Below, piece after piece: positions 3,930-31,463 of a DNA stretch of 32,000 bases; the first letter of the stretch is position 1; every line of letters starts with the position of its first letter. The position numbers and the translations under genes were made by a program. Below the pieces are notes generated by a model. The model did no database searches. It was not told where the DNA came from and worked only from the letters and a program-made list of their open reading frames with translations. Origin of the DNA: Pirellula staleyi DSM 6068 (GTDB taxonomy: Bacteria; Planctomycetota; Planctomycetia; Pirellulales; Pirellulaceae); the NCBI GenBank assembly GCA_000025185.1, contig CP001848.1, positions 4,380,001 through 4,412,000 on the forward strand, written 5' to 3'.

Positions 3930-4518
3930 TCGGGCCGAGATGCTCGCGACCGTGCGGAAACAAAAAGTACCGCCCGCCGAGCTCCCTTCGCTCGATCAAA
4001 AGTGGACCACCTACGAGAACCGGGTCGAGAAGTTCCAGGAACTCTTGGAATCGATCGGCGGGGTGTTCGTGCCGGTCCAGAACGAGCAAGAGATCGCCGA
4101 CTACCTGAAGACAATGCCGGTGGTGCAGCAAGCGAAAATGGTGGTTTCGCTCATTCCTGAATTGCTTGCGGGCAATTTTGATCTCGGCCAGGTGGAAGAC
4201 CCGCACGAGCTCGAGCCGGTCGATTTTTTCCTCCTGCGAGGTGAGCTCGGTGTCGCCGAAAATAGCGCCATTTGGCTGACCGATCGGGAGATGAAGCATC
4301 GCATCGTGCTGTTCATTACGCAGCATTTGTCGATGGTGATTCGCGCGAGCACGATCGTCAGCAACATGTACGAGGCGTATCAGAAAATCAGTGTTTCGGA
4401 TCGTCCTTACGGCACGTTCCACGCCGGTCCGTCGAAGACCGCCGATATCGAGCAGTCGCTGGTGATCGGCGCGCATGGCCCGCGCTCGCTCACCGTCTTT
4501 TGTCTGCTCGATACGTAG
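3889..4518 (+). CDS. lutC: Lactate utilization protein C (LutC/YkgG, LUD domain)
   Basis: 209 aa, third gene of the lutABC arrangement. The ATG at 3889 overlaps the lutB 3' end by 41 nt. It is preferred over the ATG at 3940 because the conserved N-terminal SRAEMLATVRK segment lies upstream of 3940. Confidence 0.75.
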   Translation: MPHETKPAKINPNSRAEMLATVRKQKVPPAELPSLDQKWTTYENRVEKFQELLESIGGVFVPVQNEQEIADYLKTMPVVQQAKMVVSLIPELLAGNFDLGQVEDPHELEPVDFFLLRGELGVAENSAIWLTDREMKHRIVLFITQHLSMVIRASTIVSNMYEAYQKISVSDRPYGTFHAGPSKTADIEQSLVIGAHGPRSLTVFCLLDT

Positions 4519-6839: not shown

Positions 6840-7045
6840 GGCGTAGCGCACAGTCGTGCAGTACGCCGCTGCGTTCGATGCAATGTGCGTCATAGACGCT
6901 TCGATCGCTTTATTCTGCAGCTCCGGCACGCTTTGCCGAGCTGGTTTGCGATGGCATTTGCTAGTGCCATCCCCTCGATGGACCTATAGTACCCAAGGCG
7001 TGTCGCTCCATCTGCGATCGTTCCTTGAAAGCTCCTGTAACCATC

Positions 7046-10000
7046 ATGGCTGGCATCATCCTGTTCATTGTCGTGATGGTCGTTGTCACGCTGGTGGGAC
7101 ACGGCATCTGGGTTTTTCTGGCGTGGCTCTTCACCTCGGCACGGGAAGACCGGCACGGGCTCCCCACCACGAGCCAACTTTCGTGCTGCGCGCGCTGCGG
7201 AACAGCGATGACTTCGGCCGAGCGGCAGTGCAGCATCTGCTCGTGGCCCCTTCCCACCGCGCAGTCCGATCGATCGCAGGCGATTCTGTGGGCGGTCGGC
7301 GCGCAGCTCGCGCGCTACTGTCGTCTCGGTCTGCTGTCGCCGCAAACCATGCAGCTCTGGATGACGCGGCTCAATCCTCCACCGACATCCGCTGCATCTC
7401 CGCAAGTGGAAGCTGCGACAACGCCGGCCGCTGTCGCTCCTGCGGCAGAGAGTCCCACGACTGAAGTTCCAGCCGCGCCGCCACTAGCGCCGGCGTTGGT
7501 GATGGGAGAGCCAGATATTGCGGCGCCGGTTCCTGTAGCGAGCTCGATGGTCGACGCGCCGATTGAAGCGATGATCGTCGAGCCTGCCATCCTCGAGTCA
7601 CCGGTTAGTGAACCTGCGACACCTCGATCGATCGAAGATCGCGCGCGACGTTATCTCGAGAATCGCGAGCTCGCAGCGCAAGAGAACGCTGCCACAGTAG
7701 CATTAGCGGCGCAGGCTACCACCGCCGCAGAGCGGCCGAAGCGAGAAGGGCTAGCGAAGCTGCTCAGCGCGTTCCTCGAAGAGAAAAACATCCGCTGGGG
7801 GGAACTGGTGGGTGGGCTGTTGATCGTCGGCTGCACCGTGGCGCTGGTGATCAGCTTTTGGTCGGAGATCAACGATCGTCCGCTCCTGAAGTTCTTGCTT
7901 TTGAACGGCGTTACTGCCGCGATTTTTGGCATGGGCTTTTATACCCAGCATAGCTGGAAGCTCCGAACCACGAGCCTCGGGCTCCAGCTGATCGGCATGC
8001 TGCTGGTCCCTCTCAACTTTTTGGCCATCGCCGCCTTCACCAGCAAAGCACCGCCGAGCGATCCACTTTCGCTAGGAGGCGAACTCCTTTCGCTTGTCTT
8101 CTTTGGGACGCTCTCGTTCTATGCTGCTCGCGAACTTGTTCCTGCGTGGCGCTGGCATTGCACCCTCGCTGCGATGCTGATGTGCGTCTGGCAACTCCTC
8201 ACACGACGCTTCATTCAGGCCGACGCCACAAACGCTGCGATCTACCTGTTTGCCACCGTTCCTGTAGCCACCTACCTCATCACGTTTGGCCTCGCCTTGA
8301 TTGATGCGCGTCGCGCTTGGCAATGGAGCGAACGGAAAACCAACCGTCTCTTCACGCTGCTCGGACTCACAACAATCGGCGTGCTACTGCCGCTCGGTGT
8401 GCTGCTCTATCAAACGCAGCAGAGCTACCGCGCACTAGAAAAGCTCTCGCCGCTCCTCACGCTGCTGGCATCTCCGGCACTGATGCTCGGCGTCGTCGCG
8501 ATGCTGAAGATTCAAAAACGCTCGCTCTTATGGCAACGGATCATCAGTGTCAGCATCGGCCTGCTGGGTGGACTGCTGACCGTGGTTTCGCTCGTCCTCG
8601 CGTGGCCTGCCCCCATGTTGCTGTTGCCGACACTCGGCTTCATCGCGGGGTTCTTTCTGTTTTTATCGATTCGCTTTCGCCTCGCCGCGGCGCATTTGCC
8701 GGCGTGTATGGCGCTGCTGGTCGTGCTGCTCATCCTGTGGCAAGTGCTCAGTGGCAATGTCGCGCTCGATTCCCTCGAGAGTGAAAAACTGGCGACAGGA
8801 CTGGTCTCGGGATCGAGTGGATTTGTCCTCATCGGCGCAGCGGTGCTGTTTGTCATCAGTTCGGTGATTCTCGAAAAACGGAGCTTGCCACACGACTCGG
8901 CGTGGCACATGCGCTCGGCTGAACTCGCCGCGACACTCGGCTTCATTCTGGTGAGCGTGGCGGGACTCGGACGCTCAGGAGACCCGATCGGCGCAACTTT
9001 TGCCTATCTGTTCCTGGCGATTGCGACCGCGATTACATCGCTCGTCACGCGGCGACAGCTCCTAGCGCAGCTCGCCTCGGCACTGCTGCTGATCACCTGT
9101 GTGCAAGCGATCGTGTTTCGCTACACCCTGATTCATCAGCTCGAAGCGCCGTGGGTTGCAGCGCTCCTGGCCCACGCAACGTTTGCGATTGTTGGTAACT
9201 ACTCGCTCCGCTGGTTTCCTCCTCTCGAGCGCGAACCGCTGAGTCCGCAATCGGCTTACACCGCAGCGCTCTCGCTCGTAGCTGCAACCGGCTGCATCGC
9301 GTTTGCATCGCTCACGATGTCGTGGGAGATGTCGACCCTCTATGTCAGCTGGCTCACATCGCTCGTGCTGCTCGTCGCGCTGCTCCTCCCGATGCCACTC
9401 CTCTTCGAGGGGTTTCAGCTGCTGCTGGCGCTCTCGGTGGGGCTCGGTGTTCTCGCCGCAGCTTCGCGACAAACCTGGTTCACAGAAGCCGAACTTCCCT
9501 ATCGCCATCCGTGGCTCTGGATTGCGCAAGGGATCGCCTTTGCATTGCAGTCGGCTGGCTGGAAAGTGGCCCGGCTGATCTATGCGCACCGCTGGCTCGG
9601 CGCTACTGCACCCGATACGACGAGCGAACAACCGCCGACTTCGTTCGATCCTCAGCTCTCGATACCTAACTGGCTTGCCACCTACGAGCGCGAGCTCCGT
9701 CTGAAGTTCGATCATATCGCTGCGATCATCGCGCTGGTGATCCTCGTGGGAAGTTCGTGCTATGCCGTCCTGCCGGGAGCTGCGCAGGAGATTTCCCCCG
9801 TTCAAGTTACAGCCCCCTTTGCGCGGAAAGATTTACAGCCAATCGCTGCCGAGAAGTTTGAGCTGCTGGGAGCTCCTCACACACTGGCGGCCGGTTTTCC
9901 CGCAGCTATCCTGACGCTCACCGTTTTCGCAGCACTTGTGCTGGGGCTGTGGCAGCATGGCAAATCGCTAAGAATTCCGGCAATTCTACTCGTTCTCTTT

Positions 10001-13000
10001 GCTTTCACGTTGCAGCTTGCCACCTTCTGGGAAGCTGAGGTCGCCACCACTTCAGCGCTCCGCTGGCTACTCGCACTGCTCGTCCTCGTCTGCTCAGCGG
10101 TCTATCTGCTGCGCGATCGTTTCACGGCGTTCTTCTCGCAACTGGGACTTACCTGGGGGAGCGACGAACCTCTCACCCCCGCGCATGTGCTGCTCGCGAC
10201 GCGCGCGATCCTTGTCGCCATCGCCATCGTTCCGTACCTGCTGATGGCGGCCTACATCTCTAGCGCAGCGCTCCAAAACTACACTTTCTCTGCCGGACAG
10301 TCGCAGCTGATCGACGCTTTCAAAGTAGTGGGAGTTCTCTCGCTGGTCTTCGCCTCCGCTGTGCTGGCTGCCAGCTTTGCCGCGCAAGAATCGCAGGCGC
10401 TCCCTCAACGTTTTGCCGCTCCACTCGCCATCGGCAGCCTGATCCTCGGTGCCGGGCCGCTCGCCATCACTTGGGGTTTTGCGATTGCTCAAAGTCTGAT
10501 CGTCCATCCACTCCTGGGACCCAACGTCGACTCCTGGTTCGTCGCCATCGGCAACCCTGCCTCCTTCGGCATGCCACTGGCGATCATCGCGCTGACACTT
10601 TTGGGGATCGGAGCGTTCGAACGACGGGTCGGCTATGTCTACGCAGCAACTCATCTGCTGAGCATCGTGGCGACGATGGTCTATCTGATGCTGCGGGCCA
10701 AAATGTCGCGCACGCTCGGCCCCGATGCCTGGACCGAAGTGCTGCAGCTCAACAGCGCCGTCTTAGGTGTTTCGGCGATCCTTTGGACCAGCATCGTGGC
10801 CCTCTACGAGCGCCAGCGCACCGATAAATCCCCCGGCGATCTCCCCGCGCAGCTGCCCACACTGACGATCGCGCAGATGCTGCTCGCTACGCTACTGATG
10901 CTGTTGACCCACGTCCCCACCTACCTCGCACACCTTTCACCGCCGGGCAGTTTGACATGGAGCACCCATGCCGGAGGCTGGACCGGACTTTGCCTCCTGA
11001 TCATCTCCCTGGTCGGGACTTGGATGGTGCTCGGCACGACGTTCCTGCGTCTCTTTCCGACGATTGGCACCGCTGCGATTCTCGCGCTCGTCGGAGTGAT
11101 TGTCAGCACCACCGCGAAGCCCACCACAGGAAGCTGGTTAAGCCATCATCTGCTGGAAATCGGCGTCATCGCGAGTGGCATTTGGAGCCTCCTCCTAGTC
11201 CCTCGATCGCTCAGGAACTGGATTTTGGTACCCACCTTTTCCGTCGACGGTCAATCGCCCGAAACTCCCCCATCGATCTGGTGGCTGACCGGGCAAGCGT
11301 CTGGCTGTGGCCTCGCCATCAGCGGACTCTTGACGCTGATTGGTCTGGCCGCTAATTCCTTCGATCCGTGGCATCCGCTCCCTGCGATCGCTGCCTACCT
11401 GACAGCCGCTGGCATGCTCGTCGCAATTGCGATGATCAACGACCAACGCTTCTTCTACTGGGGTGTTCCGCCGCTGGCGACGATGGCGAGCTACGCTCAC
11501 TGGGGTTGGCTCTCGTCAGGGACTCCCGGTTTCTCTCCCTGGATCTTGGAGTGGACGCAGATCTTCGGCATGACGCTCTCCGCGTGTGTCGCGCTGCACG
11601 CATTGCTCGAGCGGTACTGGTTCTCCCGCAGCTCATCACGCGCCGCCAGTCCTTGGCCATTTCAGTTTTCGCATCTGCTCCTGGCGATGGCGATTTTTGT
11701 GGTCGGTGGACGTGTAGCCCTTGCTTTGATGGGTGATGCGATCATTTTCGGCACCAACATTCGGCCACTTATCGAAGTGTTGTCGACAGCGTCGCTCGTG
11801 ATCGCCGCCGTAGCGCTCCTCTTCGCGCGAACGACCAATGTCACGCTGATTTTGTGCTACTTCGTGGGGCTGCTCGTCACCGCCGAGTTTGTCAATCAGC
11901 TCGATACGCGTGGCACACTCTTCTACTTTACATCGACCTTAGCCCTGGCCGCCTTCACGGTCGCGACGAGCTACCTTTGGAGCATCCGCGCGAAACTATA
12001 CGGCTTGGCCGAGCAACTCACCTTTCGCACCGAAGCAGCGCGGCCTCTTGCCGGCAGCGATCAGGTTTCTCTGCGCGGCAGCGGTCTTGGCTGGCTGGTC
12101 GTCGCAACAAGCATGCTCAGCCTGGTGGTGATTGGGCTCTCGTTCTTCGGGCAGCTGACGTTCGAGATTTTTGAGTGGCGTGTCTCCGCCGCTCATGCGA
12201 TTTTGGCGCAGGCCATCGCCATGGCGCTTCTGGCGCAAGGAACGATCCGCACAGCGCTGCAGTATGCCTCGCTCGGCATCAGCGTGCTGTTCGCGATTGC
12301 CGCCGGATTTGCCTTCTTGCCTCCCGACATTGTCGCTCCGGTGTTGCACCGAACCGTCACCGCCGCTGTCGCCATTTCCGTGATGATTCCGGTCCTGGGA
12401 CTCGGGCTGGTGAAGCTCACACGGCGCGAAAACGAGTGGACGCAAGCAGCCTATCGACTCCTGCCACTCCTGGCGATGATCGCCTCGATCCTGTTTTGCG
12501 TTGTGCTTGCCATCGAGACCCAGCAATTCACCGAGACTGGCTCGTCGCAGGTGCTCTGGCCCGCAACGGTGGCTGTAGCGCTCGCGCTCTTGCTCCTGAT
12601 TGTCGCCGCGATTGCTGCGGCGGTGCTTCCAGGTCGCGATCCGTTTCAGCTTTCCGAGCAAGGACGGACCGCCTACGTCTATGCCGCCGAACTGATTCTC
12701 GCGCTCCTTGTGCTCCACTTCCGCGTCTCGATGCCGTGGCTCTTTGCTGGTTGGTTCCTGCAATTTTGGCCGCTGCTCACCATCATCGTCGCCTTCATCG
12801 GGGTGGGGGCCTCGGAGTTCGCCCAGCGCTATAAGCTGCATGTCCTCGCCCAGCCGCTCCACAACACCGCCTCGCTCTTGCCACTCATCCCGATTCTCGG
12901 CATGTGGATCGTCCCCTCGGCGCTGCATGGCTCCGCCGTGCTGCTGATTGTCGCGTCGCTCTATGCGGCGCTGGCGCTGCTGCGAAGTTCGCCCCTCTTT

Positions 13001-13525
13001 TCCATCCTCGCGCTCCTGGCGATACAGGGGGCTTGGTGGTTTTTCCTCGGCAACTCCGAATCGCTCGTGATCTGGAAACATCCGCAGCTGTGGCTCATTC
13101 CACCGACCTTGGCGGTCCTGATTGCCACCCATTTCAGCCGGAAACGGATCAGCGTCGAGCAGCAAACCACCATTCGCTATCTGGCGGCCACTGTCCTCTA
13201 CGCCTCATCGTGCGCCGATATCTTCCTGCGCGGCGTGGCGGTCGCTCCTTGGCTGCCGCTGGTGCTGGCGGGGCTTTCGATCCTCGGTGTCATGGCAGGA
13301 ATTTTGCTACGAGTCCGCGCGTTCCTTTATCTCGGCACCGCCTTCTTGCTCGTCGCCATTTTCACCATGATTTGGTACGCCGCTGTCGAACTCGAGCGGA
13401 CCTGGATCTGGTGGGTCGCGGGGATCGTGACCGGCATCCTGATCATCACGCTGTTTGGACTCTTCGAAAAGAAACGCAACGACCTCCTGAAGCTCGTCGA
13501 TCACTTGAAGAAGTGGGACGCCTGA
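7046..13525 (+). CDS. Giant polytopic membrane protein with N-terminal TM anchor and zinc-ribbon (function unknown)
   Basis: Uninterrupted 2166-codon frame. The TTG at 7025 opens the ORF, and the ATG at 7046 is the more likely start. Order of parts: N-terminal TM helix; CxxC...CxxC (CARCG...CSICS); a Pro/Ala-rich linker; a charged helix; then ~1900 aa of almost continuous hydrophobic helices; and a basic amphipathic tail (KKRNDLLKLVDHLKKW). Confidence 0.85.
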   Translation: MAGIILFIVVMVVVTLVGHGIWVFLAWLFTSAREDRHGLPTTSQLSCCARCGTAMTSAERQCSICSWPLPTAQSDRSQAILWAVGAQLARYCRLGLLSPQTMQLWMTRLNPPPTSAASPQVEAATTPAAVAPAAESPTTEVPAAPPLAPALVMGEPDIAAPVPVASSMVDAPIEAMIVEPAILESPVSEPATPRSIEDRARRYLENRELAAQENAATVALAAQATTAAERPKREGLAKLLSAFLEEKNIRWGELVGGLLIVGCTVALVISFWSEINDRPLLKFLLLNGVTAAIFGMGFYTQHSWKLRTTSLGLQLIGMLLVPLNFLAIAAFTSKAPPSDPLSLGGELLSLVFFGTLSFYAARELVPAWRWHCTLAAMLMCVWQLLTRRFIQADATNAAIYLFATVPVATYLITFGLALIDARRAWQWSERKTNRLFTLLGLTTIGVLLPLGVLLYQTQQSYRALEKLSPLLTLLASPALMLGVVAMLKIQKRSLLWQRIISVSIGLLGGLLTVVSLVLAWPAPMLLLPTLGFIAGFFLFLSIRFRLAAAHLPACMALLVVLLILWQVLSGNVALDSLESEKLATGLVSGSSGFVLIGAAVLFVISSVILEKRSLPHDSAWHMRSAELAATLGFILVSVAGLGRSGDPIGATFAYLFLAIATAITSLVTRRQLLAQLASALLLITCVQAIVFRYTLIHQLEAPWVAALLAHATFAIVGNYSLRWFPPLEREPLSPQSAYTAALSLVAATGCIAFASLTMSWEMSTLYVSWLTSLVLLVALLLPMPLLFEGFQLLLALSVGLGVLAAASRQTWFTEAELPYRHPWLWIAQGIAFALQSAGWKVARLIYAHRWLGATAPDTTSEQPPTSFDPQLSIPNWLATYERELRLKFDHIAAIIALVILVGSSCYAVLPGAAQEISPVQVTAPFARKDLQPIAAEKFELLGAPHTLAAGFPAAILTLTVFAALVLGLWQHGKSLRIPAILLVLFAFTLQLATFWEAEVATTSALRWLLALLVLVCSAVYLLRDRFTAFFSQLGLTWGSDEPLTPAHVLLATRAILVAIAIVPYLLMAAYISSAALQNYTFSAGQSQLIDAFKVVGVLSLVFASAVLAASFAAQESQALPQRFAAPLAIGSLILGAGPLAITWGFAIAQSLIVHPLLGPNVDSWFVAIGNPASFGMPLAIIALTLLGIGAFERRVGYVYAATHLLSIVATMVYLMLRAKMSRTLGPDAWTEVLQLNSAVLGVSAILWTSIVALYERQRTDKSPGDLPAQLPTLTIAQMLLATLLMLLTHVPTYLAHLSPPGSLTWSTHAGGWTGLCLLIISLVGTWMVLGTTFLRLFPTIGTAAILALVGVIVSTTAKPTTGSWLSHHLLEIGVIASGIWSLLLVPRSLRNWILVPTFSVDGQSPETPPSIWWLTGQASGCGLAISGLLTLIGLAANSFDPWHPLPAIAAYLTAAGMLVAIAMINDQRFFYWGVPPLATMASYAHWGWLSSGTPGFSPWILEWTQIFGMTLSACVALHALLERYWFSRSSSRAASPWPFQFSHLLLAMAIFVVGGRVALALMGDAIIFGTNIRPLIEVLSTASLVIAAVALLFARTTNVTLILCYFVGLLVTAEFVNQLDTRGTLFYFTSTLALAAFTVATSYLWSIRAKLYGLAEQLTFRTEAARPLAGSDQVSLRGSGLGWLVVATSMLSLVVIGLSFFGQLTFEIFEWRVSAAHAILAQAIAMALLAQGTIRTALQYASLGISVLFAIAAGFAFLPPDIVAPVLHRTVTAAVAISVMIPVLGLGLVKLTRRENEWTQAAYRLLPLLAMIASILFCVVLAIETQQFTETGSSQVLWPATVAVALALLLLIVAAIAAAVLPGRDPFQLSEQGRTAYVYAAELILALLVLHFRVSMPWLFAGWFLQFWPLLTIIVAFIGVGASEFAQRYKLHVLAQPLHNTASLLPLIPILGMWIVPSALHGSAVLLIVASLYAALALLRSSPLFSILALLAIQGAWWFFLGNSESLVIWKHPQLWLIPPTLAVLIATHFSRKRISVEQQTTIRYLAATVLYASSCADIFLRGVAVAPWLPLVLAGLSILGVMAGILLRVRAFLYLGTAFLLVAIFTMIWYAAVELERTWIWWVAGIVTGILIITLFGLFEKKRNDLLKLVDHLKKWDA

Positions 13526-18890: not shown

Positions 18891-19167
18891 CAAACCCCCG
18901 GCCAATGAGAAGGGAAACGTTAGGAATCCATGTCGATCGAGCGATGAGCCGGGAGAGAGGCCAATCACTGAACCCGTTCATGATAGCGCTTAGCGACCCT
19001 TCAGAGGGGATAATTCTCGGGGGAATTGCGAGGAATCGCGCGGATCGCGATAGTGGGAAGCCCTTTCCACAAGGTATTCTCACCCCCAGCGAGCCGCGTT
19101 CGAAGCCCCATTGAGCGCCACTGCGGTAGCTGGATTTTTGAGACGTAGATTTTTTGCGAGCCACTCC

Positions 19168-19782
19168 ATGACCATCGACGACACTTCTTTGCATGCCGCT
19201 GTTCGCCAAGGGAGCACCGAGGCGCTAGCGCAGCTGATCGAGATGCGTCGGCCCCATTTGATGGCGTTTATCGAGCGGGAACTTGGCGCCGCACTTCGTC
19301 GGAAGGTGGAAGTGGACGACGTGTTTCAAGAGACTGCGGCCGAAGCGGTGCGCGCCTTGCCTGGCGCCGATCTTACGCAGCGCGAGCCCTTTTCGTGGCT
19401 CTGCCAAATCGCGGAGCGACGGATCATCGACCTGCATCGCAAATTTTTCGATGCTCAAAAACGAGATGCCGCGCGCGAAGTGCCACTCGCAGCACCCGCT
19501 GGAAGCGATTCCCACAGTGGCGGGCTGATCAACATGCTCGTCGCCAGCATGACCACCGCCAGCCAGGCCTTCTCGCGCAATGTACGAGAAGCCAAGCTGA
19601 TGGACGCCATCGCCACACTTCCCGAAGAACAGCGCGAGGCGCTCCGGCTGCGCTACATCGAAAACTTACCCTCGAAAGAGATCGCGCAAAAACTTGGCAA
19701 AAGCGACGCCGCCATTCGAGTGATGCTCACCCGCAGCCTCAAAAAATTGCAAGAGATCCTCGACAAGACCCTCGAAAAATAG
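19168..19782 (+). CDS. ECF-type RNA polymerase sigma-70 family factor
   Basis: Region 2-like DDVFQETAAEAVR and region 4 HTH (EEQREALRLRYIENLPSKEIAQKLGKSDAAIRVMLTRSLKKL). Start taken at ATG 19168; the ORF extends to 19111. No anti-sigma ORF is adjacent. Confidence 0.85.
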   Translation: MTIDDTSLHAAVRQGSTEALAQLIEMRRPHLMAFIERELGAALRRKVEVDDVFQETAAEAVRALPGADLTQREPFSWLCQIAERRIIDLHRKFFDAQKRDAAREVPLAAPAGSDSHSGGLINMLVASMTTASQAFSRNVREAKLMDAIATLPEEQREALRLRYIENLPSKEIAQKLGKSDAAIRVMLTRSLKKLQEILDKTLEK

Positions 19783-19851
19783 CCGCTTGCATTCGCTTGT
19801 TAGTGAAGCCGCCCCGTTTTACCTGACACAGATCGATAGATGGACTTGTAG

Positions 19852-19877
19852 GTCAGGTCCCCTCTCAGGGACCTGAC
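19852..19877 (+). terminator. GC-rich 10-bp hairpin between the convergent sigma gene and repeat copy A (possible bidirectional terminator)
   Basis: GTCAGGTCCC-CTCTCA-GGGACCTGAC forms a perfect stem. On the plus strand it is followed by GGGAGTTTATCC, only a weak U-tract. An upstream ACCTGAC (19821-19827) could pair alternatively with the 5' arm. Confidence 0.4.
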
Positions 19878-19955
19878 GGGAGTTTATCCGGCAATTCTCT
19901 AGCCGGTTTCACTTCTCCTGCCATCAAGTTAAGACCTACGTTTCTGCTTGTTGGG

Positions 19956-20218
19956 TGCCATGCTCTATCGCGGGGCCTTGAGGCCACATCGCGTTCTCGG
20001 TTGGCGATCTCTTCTCCCGTCAGATTCCCTCCGGGCATCTGACCTACACAGTTGAAGCCACTTCCGGATGGGCGACTCCGCTCAGCACAGTTTTGGGGTG
20101 CCACTGGCATCTTGCCAGTGCTGAAGTTGGAACCGATGTTTTTCGCGGAATGTCCCTGAAAACAGAGTCCATTTGCACTTCTCACTGGGCAGAGCCCAGA
20201 GGCACTCTGGATGGCAGC
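19956..20218. repeat. 263-bp structured direct repeat, copy A
   Basis: Hand alignment to 20693-20955 at an offset of 737 bp shows no indels and 5 substitutions (20031, 20047, 20052, 20206, 20209). Contains perfect hairpins at 20019-20043, 20102-20120 and 20185-20199. The ends TGCCAT/ATGGCA are complementary. Confidence 0.9.
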
Positions 20219-20355
20219 CTGCTAATTGTTGCCTGACCTTGATCTCTAGACGAAGTAATAGTTGCTGTGCGGCCCGAAAAACGGTCAGGTACGGCGCACT
20301 AACCTACTCACTCGTTGCCTTGATCTAGGATTGGTTTATGTCGCTACTATCTGAT

Positions 20356-20625
20356 CTACGGATGGCAGTCAGTGTCATTGTTGTCTGACTGGTCAGTTAA
20401 GTGCTTGAGGGTGAGTGTAGCGTCTACTTGGTCAGACTTCACTTTCTCAATTGCTCGCAGCCAATCATTCCAGATCGCATCATCAACCGGGCTTCCATCC
20501 GGAAAGAATGTCATACTGCCCAACAATGAACCTAGCTGACTGTAACCATATTTGGAGTACAGTTCATCTAGAAATGCAAACATGGCGAGATACCCTTGCT
20601 TCTCACTCAATTTATCGTTGCTCAT
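20356..20625 (-). CDS. Small cytoplasmic hypothetical protein (89 aa) on a low-GC insert
   Basis: ATG at 20625 is preceded by GAGGAGGAAAGAG (strong SD). Protein is MSNDKLSEKQGYLAMFAFLDELYSKYGY...DAIWNDWLRAIEKV... with an acidic tail and no TM or signal peptide. Hand-counted G+C is 120/265 (~45%). The 188-aa track ORF reads through repeat B and is not believed. Confidence 0.6.
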   Translation of the reverse strand: MSNDKLSEKQGYLAMFAFLDELYSKYGYSQLGSLLGSMTFFPDGSPVDDAIWNDWLRAIEKVKSDQVDATLTLKHLTDQSDNNDTDCHP

Positions 20626-20692
20626 TGCATTACTCTTTCCTCCTCGGGGCGATAGTCCTGATTCTGGATTGAATGCCTGAGGCATAGCCAGA

Positions 20693-20955
20693 TGCCATGC
20701 TCTATCGCGGGGCCTTGAGGCCACATCGCGTTCTCGGTTGGCGATCTCTTCTCCCGTCAGATTCCCTACGGGCATCTGACCTAAACAGCTGAAGCCACTT
20801 CCGGATGGGCGACTCCGCTCAGCACAGTTTTGGGGTGCCACTGGCATCTTGCCAGTGCTGAAGTTGGAACCGATGTTTTTCGCGGAATGTCCCTGAAAAC
20901 AGAGTCCATTTGCACTTCTCACTGGGCAGAGCCCAGAGGCACACTAGATGGCAGC
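20693..20955. repeat. 263-bp structured direct repeat, copy B
   Basis: Partner of 19956-20218, with 258/263 positions identical. Weaker homology resumes at 20964-20979 (GATCnnTAGACGAAGT, also at 20241-20256). The unit therefore abuts the stop codon of the upstream (minus-strand) molybdoenzyme gene at 20984. Confidence 0.9.
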
Positions 20956-20983
20956 ATAATAAAGATCGTTAGACGAAGTCGTG

Positions 20984-22252
20984 CTACGTCACGTCAACCG
21001 AGACCTCGTCGACGCCGTTCCAAACATAGCCGGCCGGATTCCAGTGAATCGAGCCGTCGAGCGGCTGTGAATGGCCGAGCACATCCACGGCTCGCGACTG
21101 AATCGTCTGTTTTCCTGGCTTCAAATCGACAGCCACTTTCCAGGTGTGCCAGGCATAGGGGCTCTTGGCGTGCTCGAGCTGGGCCCGCTGCCAGGTTGCT
21201 CCCTGATCGAGCGAAACTTCGACCGCTGCGATCTTGGCCTGACCACCATTGAAGGCAATTCCCGAGATCGTCGTTGGGCCAGCCTTCAGCTGTTCACCTT
21301 CCAGCGGCGCGAAGACGAGGCTCTTGATTTTCATGTCCCAGTTCGGTTCGCTGTTCTCGATAGTCGACTCGAACTTACTGCCCGGTGTGAGCGGCACATA
21401 AGGGGTGCGATAACGGCCGACGTGATGATAGTTGTCACTCTCGCGGGCTTCGAATCGCAGGGCCGAAAGCCATTTCACGTTCATCGTGGCGTAATAGCCC
21501 GGAGTAATCAGCCGCGCAGGTCCTCCATGGGCAATCGCAAGCGATTCGCCGTTCATTTCCAGGGCAATGATCGTCCGCTCGAGCACCACTTCCAGCGGCA
21601 AGCTATGTTCGAAATCAGGCTTCCCTTCGGCGACCGGCCCTTCTTTCCCTTCCGCTGCAACGAATCGAACTTCGCTCGACAGCTTTACTCCCAGATGCGC
21701 CAGTACATCGGCTAGCTTCGGTCCCCGAAATGTCAGATTCGCAATCGCGCCGTTGGTCCACTGAATGCCGTCGGCCTTCACCGTTTTCGAAAAGCGCGAG
21801 CGGCTGTTCCCCGAGCATTGCAGCACAAGCGTAACCTCGTGCTGAGGCAGCTTGGCGAGTTCTCCCACGGTGATCGTGCGATGCTGATCGACGAGCCCCG
21901 ACAGCATCACGGGCCAGCGCTCGGCCATGGGGGCGGGCTCCAGCGACAAACTGTTCTCGAGCAGCTGATTATTGCGCACAAACAAAATCGATTTCGGAGT
22001 GATCGCATGCTCGCGCAGGAGCGCGATCGGCGTTTCGATTTCGCCTGTCTTGATGCTATGCACAATCAGCCGCGGATCTTTTCCCGGTATCCACTGGTCG
22101 GCTGTCGGAAGTTTCGCATCGTCGGCCAAGAGCCAAGGAGATGTTCGCGCGAGTGACAACAGTGCCAGCAACGACGACGACGTTTGGAGAAAGCTGCGGC
22201 GGCCCAGGGGTGCACTATTCAGAGATGCAGAGTTCAGTGGCGAGCGATTCAT
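20984..22252 (-). CDS. Sulfite-oxidase-family molybdopterin oxidoreductase with TAT signal
   Basis: Twin-arginine leader (LGRRSFLQTSSSLLALLSLA). Mo-ligand cysteine context LVLQCSGNSRS (compare CAGNRR). C-terminal Ig-like dimerisation-type domain. Start taken at ATG 22252; the ORF extends to 22300. Confidence 0.85.
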   Translation of the reverse strand: MNRSPLNSASLNSAPLGRRSFLQTSSSLLALLSLARTSPWLLADDAKLPTADQWIPGKDPRLIVHSIKTGEIETPIALLREHAITPKSILFVRNNQLLENSLSLEPAPMAERWPVMLSGLVDQHRTITVGELAKLPQHEVTLVLQCSGNSRSRFSKTVKADGIQWTNGAIANLTFRGPKLADVLAHLGVKLSSEVRFVAAEGKEGPVAEGKPDFEHSLPLEVVLERTIIALEMNGESLAIAHGGPARLITPGYYATMNVKWLSALRFEARESDNYHHVGRYRTPYVPLTPGSKFESTIENSEPNWDMKIKSLVFAPLEGEQLKAGPTTISGIAFNGGQAKIAAVEVSLDQGATWQRAQLEHAKSPYAWHTWKVAVDLKPGKQTIQSRAVDVLGHSQPLDGSIHWNPAGYVWNGVDEVSVDVT

Positions 22253-22429: not shown

Positions 22430-23041
22430 TTAAGTGCGTTCCGCTTCACGCTCGAGTTCCGCCCGCCGAGCACGATAGCTCGCTTCAGCCTCTTGGTAGG
22501 CCGAGGCTTTACTCATGTTGTAAATCGCCATTCCAATGCCACCTATGGTGAAGATGACACCGAAGAGTGGGAAGAGCGCCACGATAGGAAACGGGCCATG
22601 CAGGCCACCTCCCATCGTGATCATTGAACCGGCCATGATCGTCCAAAATATTCCGAACGCGGTGGTCACGAAGCCTGTCACTAAGCTTCCCCCTGCGGTC
22701 GGAATATAGCGCGATCCATGCCGACCTGTGACCATATAGCTTTCGCGATCGATCATCCACTTTTGATCGAGATTGACAATCTCCTGACGAGCTTCCAGCC
22801 GCGAGAGTCGCGAGCTTTCGCGACCAGTTTCACCTAAGACAGCATAGCTGGGGCGGCTCGCTTCACCCACAAATTCCACGGCCGACGAGCCTTTGATCTC
22901 CCCCGCATCGTCGGCGATGTAATGCACCTCGGAAGCGTCACTTGCCAGCAGCTTTTGCTTAGCAGCGACGAACTCTTCGGCCGATAACGCACCAGCAGCA
23001 TGCAGCGCGCTCAGTTTTTCAAGTTCGCCAACGAGGTTCAT
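22430..23041 (-). CDS. SHOCT-domain membrane protein, paralog 1
   Basis: 203 aa. N-terminal LEKLSALHAAGALSAEEFVAAKQKLL fits the SHOCT pattern. Two adjacent hydrophobic helices and a charged C-terminal helix (YRARRAELEREAERT). Confidence 0.7.
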   Translation of the reverse strand: MNLVGELEKLSALHAAGALSAEEFVAAKQKLLASDASEVHYIADDAGEIKGSSAVEFVGEASRPSYAVLGETGRESSRLSRLEARQEIVNLDQKWMIDRESYMVTGRHGSRYIPTAGGSLVTGFVTTAFGIFWTIMAGSMITMGGGLHGPFPIVALFPLFGVIFTIGGIGMAIYNMSKASAYQEAEASYRARRAELEREAERT

Positions 23042-23153: not shown

Positions 23154-23705
23154 TTATTTGATCCGTTGCTGGGCAAGCCACTCCTCAGGTGCGGAAGCAT
23201 TACTGAGTTCGCGGCGTCTGTCACGGTAACGTTTTTCGGCACGCTTAAAATTTCGGGCCGTGACATACCAGTAGTAAGAGCAGCCGAGCCCAGCAGCGAC
23301 CGTTACCAGTCCAAAAACAAACAGTAAAGGACCGCCGGGATCACGAAGGGGTGGAAGAAACCACAAGGAAAGCATGGTCAGCCCTCCAATACCACACACG
23401 CCAATCCCCAGTATCAGGCTATCTATCACAGTCGGAACACTGCGAACGCCATGCTTACCGACGATTTGATAGCGCCGGCTTTCGACATCCCAGCATCGGT
23501 CAAGCTGAATAGTCGCTTGCCGCGACTCAATGGCCTCGACGCGCTCCTGAAGTGTTTCTAGAAGCCCCACGTCGTCCGAAATGAAATGGATGCCAGACGT
23601 GTCACTTGCCAGCAGCTTTTGCTTGGCAGCAGCGAACTCTTCGGCCGATAGCGCACCAGCAGCATGCAGCGCGCTCAGTTTTTCAAGTTCGCCGACAAGA
23701 TTCAT
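23154..23705 (-). CDS. SHOCT-domain membrane protein, paralog 2
   Basis: Start taken at ATG 23705 (MNLVGELEKLSALHAAGALSAEEFAAAKQKLL), matching paralog 1; the ORF extends to 23798. Same architecture: SHOCT, a conserved LD..W....R.Y...G.HG....PT segment, two TM helices and a basic tail. Confidence 0.7.
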   Translation of the reverse strand: MNLVGELEKLSALHAAGALSAEEFAAAKQKLLASDTSGIHFISDDVGLLETLQERVEAIESRQATIQLDRCWDVESRRYQIVGKHGVRSVPTVIDSLILGIGVCGIGGLTMLSLWFLPPLRDPGGPLLFVFGLVTVAAGLGCSYYWYVTARNFKRAEKRYRDRRRELSNASAPEEWLAQQRIK

Positions 23706-23870
23706 CCCACTCCTCCCGCAACCAAGATCGCACACGAAAGCGTCTGCAATTCTCGCGCGTGATGGCTCGCGAGTTTCTATTCGCTCGTCGGCATGCAATC
23801 TTGAGGCGAGCGGGGGAGTCGAGTCAACTCAAAACTGCTGACTCGGTCGACGCTTGGGGGAGAGGAGCGT

Positions 23871-27290: not shown

Positions 27291-27377
27291 GGAGAGGTGG
27301 CTGAGTGGTCGAAAGCGCCGGTTTGCTAAACCGGTGTAGGGTAACTCCTACCGCAGGTTCGAATCCTGTCCTCTCCG
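27291..27377 (+). tRNA. tRNA-Ser (anticodon GCU)
   Basis: Folds by hand as a cloverleaf. Acceptor GGAGAGG/CCTCTCC plus discriminator G; anticodon stem CCGGT/ACCGG with loop TTGCTAA (anticodon GCT); long variable arm GTAGG...CCTAC; T-arm GCAGG-TTCGAAT-CCTGT. CCA is not encoded. Confidence 0.9.
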
Positions 27378-27481
27378 CTAAATGCCCGCTTGCAGAATTG
27401 TTGCAAGTTGGCATTTTTAATGTACTTATGGCGATACCGCCTTTGTGTTCGCGTCATCTAAATCTTTGGTCGGCCGCAAAT

Positions 27482-27579: not shown

Positions 27580-29190
27580 ATGAGGGGGAGCAGCGTGGGC
27601 ACTAGAACCAGAATTACCTGGAAACTGGACAAGCAGGGACAGTACGCCCGTCAGATCGGCCGGAAGCGAGCGGACAACGGTAAAGTCGTCCAGCATAAGT
27701 TCCGCCTGGGTGCAGAACTCGTTGAAGCCAAGCGAAGAGAGCAGCGTCTCCGTGAACTCTGGGAACAGATCGAAGCGGAGCATCCGAGGGGAGCTGCCGA
27801 GTGGACTTCCGAGACCCTCAGTTTTGCTCGACAGATCGCTAAAGGCGAAAAGCTGATAGAGCTTCCTCAGTTCCACGGCGAATCCCCGGCTGCCTACGCC
27901 AAGCGACTCCACCTTACACAGAAAAAATATCCAGCCATTGCCATCGTTGCTGAAGATCGTGAGGCCCAGGAAATAGGCGAGATCGCAATCGACAGTATGC
28001 ACGAGGTTCAGGCTCTCGCACGTGATACCGTGCATCAACTTTCAGTCGATCTTGATTCGCGCACGGCGGTTGCGAGGTCACGTTCACGCAAGTCCACTAA
28101 AGGTAGCGGCGCAAGGCTTCACGAGGCTTTTGACGCCTTTATTGAATGGATCAAGAAGGACTATCACCGCGAAGCACTAGGTCGGGTCAATGACGGCGGT
28201 CTGACGCTGATCCGCCAAGTTGGCACACTGAAAGAGAAGCACGAAGATACCGCATTATCCACGATCGACTACGTTGCCGTTGAGTTGATGTTTCAGTTTT
28301 GGCGGCAGCGCCCGTTTCGCAAGGGAACCAAACGACCGATTAGTCGGGTGTCTGCCGAAAACTATCTCGGACTGCTGAAGCGTTTTTTCCGGTGGCTTCA
28401 TCGGCAACCGAAATTCGCTTGGAGTAAGCCTGATGACTTTGAAGAGATCTCCACGAAAGTTGAGGACGATCCCGATGGATTGCAGCGCGGATTGGCGCAA
28501 GTAAAGACCTTCGGGCTAGCTGAACTCATCAAGCTGAACGAAGTCGCGACACCCTTGGAACGATTATTTCTCCTGCTCGGGTTGAATTGCGGGTTTGGCG
28601 TGAAAGAGATTGCGACTCTCACCGTGGGAGAGGTGGTGCTCTTCAAAGGACATAACGACCGAGAGCAAGAGCTTTTGGGATATCAGACGACAGCAGCGGA
28701 CTCGTTCATCAAGCGAGTACGGCGAAAGAGCAGCGTGTACGGTGAATGGATATTGTTTCAACAAACCGTCGATGGCCTACAGTGGGCACTAAAGCGGCGT
28801 CGAGCGATGCCGGATTTTTCGCCGAATGCGCCGTTGCTGCTCAATAGCCACGGGGAACGATATGACAAGCCAACGAAGGGTGATCACCGCAATCAGCAGA
28901 TCTCGAATCGGTTCAACGATCTCGTAGCGCGCATTCGAGCAAAGGATGAGTCCTTCCCGAAGCTGTCTTTTGGCAAGCTCCGCAAGACATCAGGAAACCT
29001 AATGCGAGATCGAGGCGGTGGCGAGGTCTCGGGTGTTCATCTTTGCCATGGCCAAGCGGTAAAAACCGATGACCTCGCCGACGCCTACACGAATCGCCCT
29101 TTCGGCAAAGTCTTTGCAGCATTGCGAGTTGTGGAGCAATACCTACAGCCTGTATTTGCCGCTGCGGGTCCGAATCCTTTTGGCAAGTAG
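27580..29190 (+). CDS. Divergent tyrosine-recombinase-like integrase
   Basis: 536 aa, next to a tRNA. The C-terminal region aligns by eye to integrase boxes: LLLGLNCGFGVKEIATL (box I), FGKLRKTSGNLM (compare HxLRHT), LCHG (compare LGH) and DAYTNR (candidate catalytic Tyr). Several canonical residues appear substituted, so the assignment is tentative. Confidence 0.55.
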   Translation: MRGSSVGTRTRITWKLDKQGQYARQIGRKRADNGKVVQHKFRLGAELVEAKRREQRLRELWEQIEAEHPRGAAEWTSETLSFARQIAKGEKLIELPQFHGESPAAYAKRLHLTQKKYPAIAIVAEDREAQEIGEIAIDSMHEVQALARDTVHQLSVDLDSRTAVARSRSRKSTKGSGARLHEAFDAFIEWIKKDYHREALGRVNDGGLTLIRQVGTLKEKHEDTALSTIDYVAVELMFQFWRQRPFRKGTKRPISRVSAENYLGLLKRFFRWLHRQPKFAWSKPDDFEEISTKVEDDPDGLQRGLAQVKTFGLAELIKLNEVATPLERLFLLLGLNCGFGVKEIATLTVGEVVLFKGHNDREQELLGYQTTAADSFIKRVRRKSSVYGEWILFQQTVDGLQWALKRRRAMPDFSPNAPLLLNSHGERYDKPTKGDHRNQQISNRFNDLVARIRAKDESFPKLSFGKLRKTSGNLMRDRGGGEVSGVHLCHGQAVKTDDLADAYTNRPFGKVFAALRVVEQYLQPVFAAAGPNPFGK

Positions 29191-29838
29191 TCCCGTCATT
29201 GTGAGTGATGTAAATCACCCTTGGCCACACTTCCGTGTCAGCGCACTGCTGTAGCGACCTAGACGCCTGACTCGCTTGCCGCGTTCATCTTCATCGACGC
29301 GGCGGGCAGTTCGCCTTCCTTGTAACGCTCCACCGGACCGCGTCGTCGCGGATGGGCGATGATGCTTCGCAGGCCGTTGCTGTCAGCGACAGGCTAGGAT
29401 CTACTTATGCCGGAATTGCCGGGAAAAATTCCCGGCTGGCAAAGTTGTTGATTCCATACTTGCGAGTGCCGGAAGCGTTCCGCTTCAGTGGCGATAACGT
29501 GAAACTTTGGCGAACGGAACTGTGAGCGAGTCCGGCTTACTTATCCACCGCGACAAATTCGCGGGCGCAAACCATCTGGGACCTACGAGATGCACAGATC
29601 AATGACGCGACGAGGATCAGCGGGAACCACCGAACTCCTTTCGTTGCCTATTGCTGACGTCGCCAGTTCTATCAGCGACACGGTCCACCTCACTGGAACC
29701 TCTTCAGCGGCATCCTTCCCTGGGGTCGCTCAGCGGTCTGTTTGGAGATCTGCAACACCCCCGGTAACATCTTCTTTCCGAACGCCGCCCCGCTGCGCGA
29801 GCGGCGGGCGGCAAAGGTTGAGGAGAAGCTATTCTCCT

Positions 29839-29928
29839 TATCTCAATAATATATTGAGATAGGCGCTGTATCTCAATAATCGGAAAACGGCGTCCTATCT
29901 CAATAATCGGGACGGCATTATTGGGATA
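29839..29928. promoter_or_regulatory. TATCTCAATAAT operator-like repeat cluster
   Basis: Direct copies at 29839-29850, 29869-29880 and 29896-29907. The first copy is part of a palindrome with ATTGAGATA at 29853-29861. An inverted 11/12 copy (ATTATTGGGATA) lies at 29917-29928. The cluster is preceded by hairpin AGGAGAA-GCTA-TTCTCCT (29821-29838). Confidence 0.6.
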
Positions 29929-30117
29929 CATTTACGCAAACTCGGGACTGCTGAACCCGACAAATCAGAACTCGCCGTCCCTCGGTTGTCTTCTATCAGG
30001 ATGGCCGAACTATACGAAAGCAGCCAGACACAAATTCAATGTCATAATACCAGCGATGCCATCCTGGCCGAGTGTCCTGGTACGTTTGGCAGTGTGGAAA
30101 AAATGTCGGGTGCATGA

Positions 30118-30139
30118 AAGGTACAAACTTGCATTTTCG
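30118..30139 (-). terminator. Putative intrinsic terminator of the Rep-like gene
   Basis: On the minus strand, CUUGCAUUU-ACGA-AAAUGCAAG forms a perfect 9-bp stem followed by UUUGUACCUUU. It lies 74 nt downstream of the stop at 30213. Confidence 0.45.
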
Positions 30140-30212
30140 TAAATGCAAGCGGTATTCTTCCGCCATTGGCAAGTCGGGCTCCCTACCTGTGCTTGTCGAA
30201 GGACCCTACGGT

Positions 30213-31463
30213 TCAATCCACTGAACTGAAGGCTGGACGAGCATCTTGACGGGAAATCTTCCGGCGACGCCTGTGCTTCACCTCGGGCCGCACGGGTGGT
30301 CCCATTGGTGTGGCGATCTCGTAGTGTTCAAGCGTTGCGATTTTGCCTGCCTTGTCAGCATGGTTGTTGGCAGCGTGGTCCTCGTCATCCCGCCAGAAAA
30401 CTGACAGGTCAGTTCCCAACGGCAGACGATAACGCTTGGCGAGCTGCTCGACCGTCAACCGACATAGTTGCTCGCGTTCCGTGGCGCCATGTACGGGGCT
30501 GGGGATGCGAATCAATTTGCGTGACGGAATCTTTCGATTGATGTAATCGGCCCTTAGCAATCCAGCCTTCTGGAGCTGCTTCATAGCCAGCGCCACAGAT
30601 CGCTCCGAAAGCCCCGCTTGCTGGGCGATCTGCCCGTGAGTGTTTTCCGGACGCTTCTTTATTCCCTTCCTTTCAAGCCAGCGCAACCACCGCGCCAACA
30701 CCAGCGACTGTGTCAGCCGTGGCAACGCTATGAACTCGGAGGCGTTGAGCCACGTTCGCCATTCACATTCATCGGGATGCGGCTTCCATGCGCCATCGAG
30801 CTTCCCCAGTTGGGCCAGCTCAAAGTGCACGTTTCGATCCAGCACCAGCACCGGGCCGCGATGCCCCTTTATCTTGAACCGATCAATCAACCCACGTGAC
30901 TGCAGGGCATAGACAGCCTCGACGACGCGGCGCTCGGACAACCCGAGCGTATTGAACAGCCGCGTGTAGGTCGCGAAGTAGGGACGCCGCAGAAACTCGT
31001 CCGGATTCGGGTTGAGATCCTCGTCGGTAAGGCCCGCCACAAATGACGGTTTGAGCCTGTGCTTTCCGTAAAGGCCCGGACTGCGTTGATTGAGGTACAC
31101 GAGATGGGACAGCAGCAAGCCCGCACCCACATTCCCTTGCGTGGCGAGGACGGCCCAACTAGAGATCAGTGTGCCAGGTCGTGGATCGTCCGTGGGTCGG
31201 TTGTCCCGACCCATAAAGTGCTCGCAGATTCGACCGAATTGCTCCAGATCGACAGCAGGAGGCGGATTCTTTGGCCGCTTGGGCTCGGGGGTGTCTGGAG
31301 ACTTGCGACTGATCCCCGTGGGATATGGTTTCAGATTGTCAGCTTGGCGGACCGGCAACCCGGGAAGATTTGGACGACGACAACTGGCACCGTGTTCGCT
31401 GCCGTTCGACGCCTCGCCAATTCGACTTGACCGTAAAGAGCGCTTTGATACGCTGACTGACAT
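30213..31463 (-). CDS. Rep-like / replisome-organizer-like protein with two winged-helix-type HTH segments
   Basis: 416 aa. Basic, Pro-rich N-terminus. A LLLSHLVYL segment resembles those seen in phage/plasmid initiators. Two HTH-like segments are present (LGLSERRVVEAVYALQSRGLI and AGLSERSVALAMKQLQKAGLL). Iterons lie upstream. The function is inferred, not shown. Confidence 0.5.
   Translation of the reverse strand: MSVSVSKRSLRSSRIGEASNGSEHGASCRRPNLPGLPVRQADNLKPYPTGISRKSPDTPEPKRPKNPPPAVDLEQFGRICEHFMGRDNRPTDDPRPGTLISSWAVLATQGNVGAGLLLSHLVYLNQRSPGLYGKHRLKPSFVAGLTDEDLNPNPDEFLRRPYFATYTRLFNTLGLSERRVVEAVYALQSRGLIDRFKIKGHRGPVLVLDRNVHFELAQLGKLDGAWKPHPDECEWRTWLNASEFIALPRLTQSLVLARWLRWLERKGIKKRPENTHGQIAQQAGLSERSVALAMKQLQKAGLLRADYINRKIPSRKLIRIPSPVHGATEREQLCRLTVEQLAKRYRLPLGTDLSVFWRDDEDHAANNHADKAGKIATLEHYEIATPMGPPVRPEVKHRRRRKISRQDARPAFSSVD

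Follow-up and report, generated by a model that had tools for sequence, protein, structure and literature searches.

How did a single small gene of low guanine-plus-cytosine (GC) content come to lie between two nearly identical repeats on the chromosome of Pirellula staleyi DSM 6068, and what are the gene and the repeats that enclose it? The stretch of DNA examined comprises 32 kb of this genome (hereafter the window), and window coordinates are used throughout, except where another contig is named. With a probability of roughly 0.6, the feature is a lineage-specific three-part block, in which a foreign immunity module lies between gene-converting non-coding repeats at a variable spot of the P. 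staleyi chromosome. The gene, an open reading frame (ORF) of 89 codons designated ORF89, is predicted from its sequence context to encode an orphan immunity protein of a polymorphic toxin system, and the repeats are two copies, A and B, of a unit termed U. For comparison, the same locus was available in L144 (an NCBI metagenome-assembled genome, MAG), in L145 (a JGI metagenome contig), in part in L001 (a 770-bp ENA metagenome contig), and in L141, which is the closest relative outside the P. staleyi group and whose molybdoenzyme is 76% identical. The block and its flanks are arranged as follows.

19111 to 19782, plus strand: ECF (extracytoplasmic function) sigma-70 family gene, the conserved downstream flank (Pfam Sigma70_r2 and r4; syntenic in L141 and L144)
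19783 to 19955, no strand: unique spacer from copy A to the convergent ECF sigma-factor gene
19956 to 20225, no strand: repeat copy A (unit U), from the repeat search and the alignments
20226 to 20355, minus strand: 3′ flank of ORF89, rich in stop codons and low in GC, leading into the 16-mer at 20241–20256
20356 to 20625, minus strand: ORF89 (Psta_3394), predicted orphan immunity protein with a three-helix domain of ~75 amino acids (aa), from the neighbourhoods of the homologues in L147 and L148
20626 to 20692, minus strand: toxin-gene stump, in frame with ORF89, reading LAMPQAFNPESGLSPRGGKSNA, from the match to the tail motif
20693 to 20962, no strand: repeat copy B (unit U), non-coding; L001, L144 and L145 have it as well
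20963 to 20983, minus strand: start of the duplicated block beside the stop codon, with the 16-mer 20964–20979 (equivalent to 20241–20256) and a variable piece (8 nt; 22 nt in copy A)
20984 to 22252, minus strand: sulfite-oxidase-family molybdoenzyme gene, the conserved upstream flank (Pfam Oxidored_molyb and Mo-co_dimer; P0002, a P. staleyi DSM 6068 protein, is 100% identical; syntenic in L141 and L144)

A repeat search of the window returned the two copies as direct repeats of 270 nt (19956–20225 and 20693–20962) with 97% identity and a spacing of 737 nt. Pairwise alignment of their first 263 nt gave exactly five substitutions (C>A, C>A, T>C, T>A and G>A) and no insertion or deletion. The homology resumes in a second block (20241–20256 versus 20964–20979; 14 of 16 positions identical, 88%) beyond an unalignable piece of 22 nt in copy A and 8 nt in copy B, the whole duplicated block measuring ~290–300 nt; 4 nt lie between the stop codon of the minus-strand sulfite-oxidase-family gene and the start of copy B. 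The terminal inverted repeat of the unit is merely 6 nt long, and no target-site duplication was seen at the repeat junctions when these were read from the sequence and from the alignment of the copies. Each unit carries three perfect hairpins, namely CACTGGCA-TCT-TGCCAGTG (20102–20120 and 20839–20857; 0 expected by chance), GTCAGAT-N11-ATCTGAC (20019–20043 and 20756–20780; one substitution, located in the loop) and CTGGGC-AGA-GCCCAG. The sequence between the copies has a GC content of 46.8%, compared with 57% in the copies and 57.8% in the whole window, and the 9-mer GGATGGCAG is found again at 20360–20368 (three matches in the window versus 0.37 expected). The initial annotation had described this geometry from the letters of the sequence, including the 263-nt unit at an offset of 737 with its five substitutions, the weaker homology next to the stop codon, the low-GC insert with its Shine-Dalgarno-led ORF of 89 codons, the recurring 9-mer, the three hairpins and the loop position of the single hairpin substitution, and all of these descriptions were reproduced.

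ORF89 is preceded by a GGAGGA Shine-Dalgarno sequence, is annotated as the hypothetical protein Psta_3394, and has stayed intact in each of the four assemblies, where it differs by no more than one amino acid. A HMMER search identified 624 relatives at E ≤ 1e-3, in which the domain is well conserved; they are either single proteins of ~75 aa or chains of two to six tandem domains, with six in P0122. The predicted structure consists of three helices (predicted local distance difference test score, pLDDT, 87), and this predicted fold has no structural match in the PDB. ORF89 itself has no match in Pfam, NCBIfam, PADLOC, PHROG or the PDB. Forty of its relatives have none in Pfam or the PDB, and their sole PADLOC match is a stray one (NsnC, in one of the 40, E 0.0026), while NCBIfam applied to six other relatives returned merely two chance-level matches, both on one relative. 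As no promoter or terminator pattern was found for ORF89, read-through from the molybdoenzyme gene probably accounts for its transcription.

A function in toxin immunity is suggested for the ORF89 family by the position of its members, as homologues sit directly behind the variable C-terminal domain of large toxin-like proteins. In the viral contig L147, the family gene (3992–4222) overlaps the stop codon of a toxin-like ORF of 434 aa (2691–3995), and in the viral contig L148, the family gene (3962–4216) starts 20 nt after a large toxin-like ORF ending at 3941. The member in L151 is preceded merely by a stump of the same toxin tail domain, and in P0144 an Rhs-type DPxGL end (...DPLGL) stands ahead of the domain. 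The tandem multi-domain relatives correspond to the definition of polyimmunity proteins (PMC3482391). In a further viral contig, L146, the ORF89-family gene adjoins a phage portal gene.

The identity of the remaining insert sequence points in the same direction. The 67 nt between copy B and ORF89 encode, in the ORF89 frame, the toxin tail PQAFNPESGLSP, and the stump LAMPQAFNPESGLSPRGGKSNA aligns with the toxin tails ...PKTYNPQTGLSSP, ...PHQYNPKTGLASP and ...PHTFNPQTGLPAP. In ~2.2 million six-frame residues of collected sequence, the tail motif [FY]NP.[ST]GL was found only just upstream of ORF89-family genes; in the window it lies at 20673, 16 codons upstream of ORF89, and it also stands upstream of the orphan member in L151. 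The large proteins of L147 and L148 are 55% identical over their last ~90 aa. This common C-terminal domain (L147:2691–3995 and L148:3126–3941) reads GHLPD.PENR...GN.W.GR..PD.TQVW...NGG...YNP.TGL and has no match in Pfam, NCBIfam or the PDB, and it is a candidate new toxin domain. Neither the ORF89 family nor its toxin domain matches any of the Imm, Tox or Ntox families described in Pfam. Based on the tail motif and the family neighbourhoods, the insert consists of a truncated toxin 3′ end and an intact immunity gene; it is a horizontally acquired orphan module in which the last ~20 toxin codons are fused in frame to the immunity gene. The description of the insert in the initial annotation as carrying a single gene holds, although the toxin stump and the immunity identity of that gene had been overlooked.

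The order molybdoenzyme gene, copy B, ORF89, copy A and convergent ECF sigma-factor gene is common to DSM 6068, L144 and L145, whose loci are ~97% identical overall; within L144, copies A and B are 94.3% identical. The presence of both copies around the gene in these two further assemblies rules out an assembly artefact, which the initial annotation had kept as a possible explanation, and the same layout in other assemblies implies that the duplication is older than strains ~3% apart. L001 has copy B and ORF89 and ends before copy A. Its 3′ end falls inside the 22-nt variable piece (window ~20229), just ahead of copy A, and this end point may reflect strain heterogeneity at the junction or simply low coverage. 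A reading of L001 as a 737-bp circle with a k-mer overlap was rejected, as the contig begins inside the molybdoenzyme gene and stops shortly before copy A, with no overlap between its ends. L141 keeps the flanking genes without the unit or ORF89; there, a gene for a 316-aa RNase_T (DEDD exonuclease) protein (L141:11331–12281) occupies the position of the repeat-gene-repeat block of P. staleyi, and the window shows no detectable trace of this gene. Synteny does not extend to more distant molybdoenzyme loci. The interval between the molybdoenzyme gene and the sigma-factor gene is a variable spot.

The repeat copies undergo concerted evolution by gene conversion, as seen from the complete absence of sites specific to the A or B paralogue, from four strain-specific sites common to both copies, and from patches swapped between the copies, such as the TCACC patch, which lies in copy A in L144 and L145 but in copy B in L001. 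The A/B pair of DSM 6068 is the most recently homogenised. Between DSM 6068 and L144, the two copies differ by 4.8% and 5.9%, compared with 1.8% for the adjacent non-coding spacers and 1.3% for all flanks together (Fisher p = 0.005 and 2e-5), and the unit has diverged ~3 times as far as the neighbouring spacers. The strain differences are clustered, with three or four bases changed within 5–8 nt (CCGCG>TCACC, CTGT(G/T)T>CCCCGT and CGCGATGTGG>CCCGGCGTCG). A diversity-generating retroelement was considered and rejected, since the substitution pattern is the wrong one (not confined to adenines) and the window contains no reverse transcriptase.

One component of the unit belongs to a much wider family. 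The hairpin CACTGGCA-TCT-TGCCAGTG lies in a 26-nt sequence that is a repetitive extragenic palindromic (REP) element of a planctomycete family associated with REP-associated tyrosine transposases (RAYTs), an identity that the initial annotation had also missed. Four REP-related features were located in the two copies.

20096 to 20121, plus strand: REP element of copy A, identical to the consensus (0 mismatches)
20182 to 20207, minus strand: degenerate REP arm of copy A, inverted, with 7 mismatches
20833 to 20858, plus strand: REP element in copy B, exact match to the 26-nt consensus GGGTGSCACTGGCATCTTGCCAGTGC
20919 to 20944, minus strand: degenerate REP arm of copy B, inverted, matching at 19 of 26 positions; L001 lacks it owing to the 27-nt deletion

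The assignment to a REP/RAYT system is based on dispersed copies, inverted doublets and Y1 transposase genes flanked by REPs. The 26-mer, with the consensus GGGTG(G/C)CACTGGCATCTTGCCAGTGC and a conserved unpaired 5′ head, was found in at least 120 stretches, mostly from Planctomycetota genomes, among the matches listed; also among the matches listed, there were 58 doublets in the "+-" orientation versus one in "-+", mostly 33–64 nt apart. In L004 and L005, REP copies flank ORFs that match the Y1 transposase family PF01797 with 26.6 bits (above the cut-off) and 21.2 bits (just below it). These ORFs of ~200 aa (L004:1037–1782 and L005:4745–5519) lie between two REPs and carry HVH and YxHxNPV motifs, and they are probably the RAYTs of this REP family, judging from their sequence. 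L005 also contains a tandem run of REPs with 30-nt spacing (5525–5633). The REP sequence GGGTGSCACTGGCATCTTGCCAGTGC is letter-identical in MAGs labelled Pirellulales, Thermoguttaceae, Lacipirellulaceae and Planctomycetaceae and in a few non-planctomycete ones (loci L002–L121). REPs are usually species-specific. In unit U, a perfect REP is followed 86 nt downstream (start to start) by the inverted arm with 19 of 26 matches, and this REPIN-like doublet fills ~110 of the ~290 nt of the unit and does not set the ends of the duplication. No RAYT or Y1 transposase gene is present in the window.

Outside the REP, the unit is confined to this locus in the sequence searched. The full unit was found nowhere else in the 32-kb window, in 20 kb of L144 or in the closest relative L141; an exact 19-mer specific to the unit gave only 19 chance matches in JGI metagenome contigs; and the unit was absent from plasmids, phages, viral contigs and, as a proxy, called proteins. 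A scan of the genome collection with the hairpin returned REP loci only, among the matches listed, and the stretch common to the unit and other REP loci is limited to the 26–40 nt around the hairpin. Direct repeats also bracket the family gene in two of the viral contigs, with 87 nt at 95% identity and a spacing of 787 in L146 (199–285 and 986–1072) and 81 nt at 81% identity and a spacing of 777 in L147 (3507–3587 and 4284–4364). As these are unrelated coding sequences (the 3′ end of a neighbouring gene and a pre-toxin linker), the repeats around family members point to general recombination at such modules and not to a recombination site common to the family.

The unit is non-coding: its variable sites fall 10, 7 and 6 times on codon positions 1, 2 and 3 without a third-position excess, its GC content has no codon periodicity, its translations match no protein family, and the L001 unit has suffered a 2-nt insertion, which is a frameshift, as well as a 27-nt deletion. 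The first three of these properties, together with the REP doublet inside the unit and its host-like GC content (57%), which differs from that of the insert, stand against the proposal that the unit is a decayed piece of the toxin gene and the locus a wrecked polymorphic-toxin array, its repeats having been left by module displacement as at Rhs/CDI (contact-dependent inhibition) orphans. In its favour, L147 has the same layout, with its 81-nt repeat before the toxin C-terminal domain and again behind the immunity gene; one frame is open in both copies, that of copy B running into the toxin tail and ORF89; and weak collinear matches (G[HK][LM]P..P[EQ]N and LG....GN) reach a best shuffle p of 0.018. 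However, most comparisons are non-significant (p = 0.06–0.23), the similarity ends within three codons of the unit edge, and the NGG motif is absent. The unit as the remainder of the toxin domain was accordingly set aside after Smith-Waterman comparison with shuffles (p = 0.018–0.23, unconvincing), and the proposal as a whole is unlikely. The initial annotation had offered a duplicated structured RNA, and such a functional RNA, a small RNA derived from the 3′ untranslated region of the molybdoenzyme gene or else an ORF89 leader, could appeal to the several perfect hairpins and to the start of copy B 4 nt after the stop codon. REP hairpins are able to stabilise upstream mRNA in Escherichia coli. 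In L144 copy A (L144:10401–10670), moreover, a C to T and a G to A change 34 nt apart preserve 7 bp of pairing (TCAGCAC/GTGCTGA), overlapping the REP stem, and keep CAGCAC paired with GTGCTG; this double change, which could result from selection or from a template-switch mutation, is the sole clear compensatory event among the copies. Against an RNA, Rfam searches at gathering and at permissive (E ≤ 10) thresholds gave chance matches only, the best being a miRNA with 24 bits versus a gathering score of 76. The copies fold no better than shuffles (z = -1.9 and -1.1, not significant), and the covariation that the initial annotation had proposed to look for is essentially absent, with 0 of 78 pairs compensated on one strand and 2 of 85 on the other in the consensus fold of six copies. 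Hairpin 2 was lost from L001 through the 27-nt deletion, the GGCC hairpin is broken by clustered changes in L144 copy A, the unit evolves faster than the spacers beside it, and it is missing from L141. A functional RNA is therefore most improbable.

The remaining alternatives concern mobility. The unit, or the 737-bp period, could be a mobile element in its own right, either a miniature inverted-repeat transposable element (MITE) or REPIN composite inserted twice, or a REP-flanked cargo moved as a single-stranded circle by a RAYT/IS200-type transposase. Both copies do contain a perfect REP complete with 5′ head, the two REPs being equally oriented and separated by 737 nt, the REP family is tied to Y1 transposases elsewhere, and a circle of unit and insert entering the REP of a resident unit would give the layout. 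Nevertheless, only 26–40 nt are common to the at least 120 REP loci and the rest of the unit was not found in the window, relatives, metagenomes, plasmids or phages that were searched. There is also neither a target-site duplication nor more than 6 nt of terminal inverted repeat, the window contains no transposase, and the homology continues past the unit into the 16-mer after an indel, which fits a segmental duplication, making self-mobility distinctly improbable. A bolder version, in which toxin-stump/immunity modules of this family travel as circles of ~0.74–0.79 kb, entering and leaving chromosomes via a flanking repeat, here possibly via the same-strand REP hairpins and a RAYT-type single-strand transposase, was prompted by the similar spacings of 737, 777 and 787 nt around family members in three unrelated loci; it is a long shot, and, if true, it would amount to a REP-bounded element with cargo, a type of mobile unit not known from earlier descriptions. 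The initial annotation had further considered a cassette-array recombination site, in which the unit would serve an integron- or rAID-like system and ORF89 would be a captured cassette. The succession of repeat, small low-GC gene and repeat agrees with this, as does an immunity gene as cargo, known from Bacteroidales rAID-1 arrays (bioRxiv 10.1101/471110). However, no tyrosine recombinase or integrase was found within ~10 kb on either side, in the window or in L144, a single cassette is present, and the unit occurs nowhere else in the sequence searched. Sites of the attC type measure 57–141 nt, so that the unit, at 263–300 nt, is too long, and it lacks RYYYAAC/GTTRRRY ends. The unrelated coding repeats at L146 and L147 indicate that the family shares no common recombination site, and a dedicated cassette site is very improbable.

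The immunity-module explanation, by contrast, includes the insertion of a cassette through the 263-bp segment, which was the remaining candidate of the initial annotation; it fits the layout, although no circle, empty site or donor was found. The duplication would have arisen together with the insertion of the toxin-stump/immunity fragment. By one route, a circle of ~737 bp with one repeat would integrate by a single crossover, site-specifically or at the REP; by another, an illegitimate insertion would be coupled to a local duplication. Circle integration is the simplest route to the repeat-insert-repeat order, and a circle or a duplication-coupled insertion is the most likely origin. Once in place, 263-bp repeats 0.47 kb apart could serve RecA-dependent recombination that deletes the immunity gene or amplifies it in tandem; the immunity protein would protect against a toxin from competitors or phages, while the repeats themselves would have no dedicated function.

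Several points weigh against this explanation. In three of four strains, a reading frame in phase with the toxin stump stays open across the unit, and the unit might therefore be a toxin fragment of older date that has decayed. By itself, gene conversion fails to account for the 3-fold excess divergence and the clustered multi-base changes, which possibly come from an unseen third copy or from template switching in quasi-palindromes. The immunity family and the toxin domain are without a match in Pfam, NCBIfam, PADLOC, PHROG or the PDB, and the immunity function of ORF89 is deduced from gene neighbourhood alone. The unit may be a multi-copy element, as the count of its copies covered the searched sequence and not the complete P. 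staleyi genome. Finally, no empty site (a single copy without the insert), circle or donor carrying the unit was found in the sequence searched, and neither microhomology nor a target-site duplication was seen at the junctions.

Three further features lie elsewhere in the window. Tandem paralogues of SHOCT-domain membrane proteins (22430–23041 and 23154–23798, minus strand), with a 141-nt stretch of 86% identity, are present also in L144 and L141. A tRNA-Ser(GCT) gene (27291–27378) is followed at 27580–31463 by an ORF of 536 aa with no family match and by a helix-turn-helix protein; the same side of the tRNA-Ser gene carries PSCyt/DUF1501 genes in L144 and an integrase and a DUF3987 gene in L141, and it is probably a strain-variable island. 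An ORF of 2166 aa without a Pfam match (7025–13525, plus strand) has a conserved counterpart of 2159–2162 aa at the corresponding position of both L144 and L141.

In itself, the locus is of little consequence, a minor evolutionary scar of a kind ordinary in bacterial genomes. It is, at the same time, a clean natural case of gene conversion between 263-bp repeats, which could switch an immunity gene off or amplify it. An unannotated immunity family with hundreds of members, together with an unannotated toxin domain in phage-borne and Rhs-type toxins, provides a testable pair, and a 26-nt REP/RAYT element identical across several planctomycete families is unusual for REPs. The toxin/immunity pair and the REP/RAYT family are perhaps worth more than the repeat from which they were recognised.

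Compared with known systems, the locus resembles an integron cassette with its attC site in that a promoterless small ORF is bounded by similar structured repeats, but it has no integrase and no core sites, its repeat is too long, and it holds a single cassette. rAID-1 clusters consist of a 5′ XerD-like recombinase gene and at least two co-directional low-GC genes with repetitive intergenic sequence (bioRxiv 10.1101/471110). They share with the present locus an orphan immunity gene, skewed GC content and repeated intergenic sequence (Ross et al., bioRxiv 10.1101/471110), whereas the P. staleyi locus has no XerD-like recombinase and one gene instead of an array, belongs to another phylum, and carries a repeat found at this locus only. 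Campbell-type integration and gene amplification likewise place a unique segment between near-identical, converting direct repeats from which it can pop out or be amplified; here, the segment is not known from any circle, plasmid or phage, and integration is deduced from the layout only. The REP of the unit is like those of REP/REPIN-RAYT systems (Nunvar et al. 2010; Bertels & Rainey 2011; Di Nocera et al. 2013, PMC3733652) in its 26-nt hairpin with an unpaired 5′ head, its many copies, its inverted doublets 33–64 nt apart and its flanking of Y1-transposase genes, and unlike them in its head, GGGTG(G/C) in place of GTAG or CGTC tags, and in the occurrence of the same 26-mer in several planctomycete families.

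Polymorphic toxin systems are characterised by a variable C-terminal domain followed by a small gene, by orphan copies and by tandem polyimmunity fusions (Zhang et al. 2012, PMC3482391). With modules of the Rhs, CDI and MuF types (Zhang et al. 2012, PMC3482391; Jamet et al. 2017, PMC5576092), the locus and its family share a small immunity gene behind a variable C-terminal toxin domain, orphans that keep a truncated toxin 3′ end, foreign composition, tandem polyimmunity proteins and direct repeats left by recombination. In contrast to these modules, no full-length toxin gene or delivery system lies near the locus, and the bracketing repeats are non-coding, host-like DNA and not toxin-gene sequence. 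The locus belongs to no described immunity or toxin family. It differs from integron cassettes, rAID-1 clusters and Rfam RNAs and, in the sequence searched, is probably no MITE; it has the gene neighbourhood that defines an orphan immunity module.

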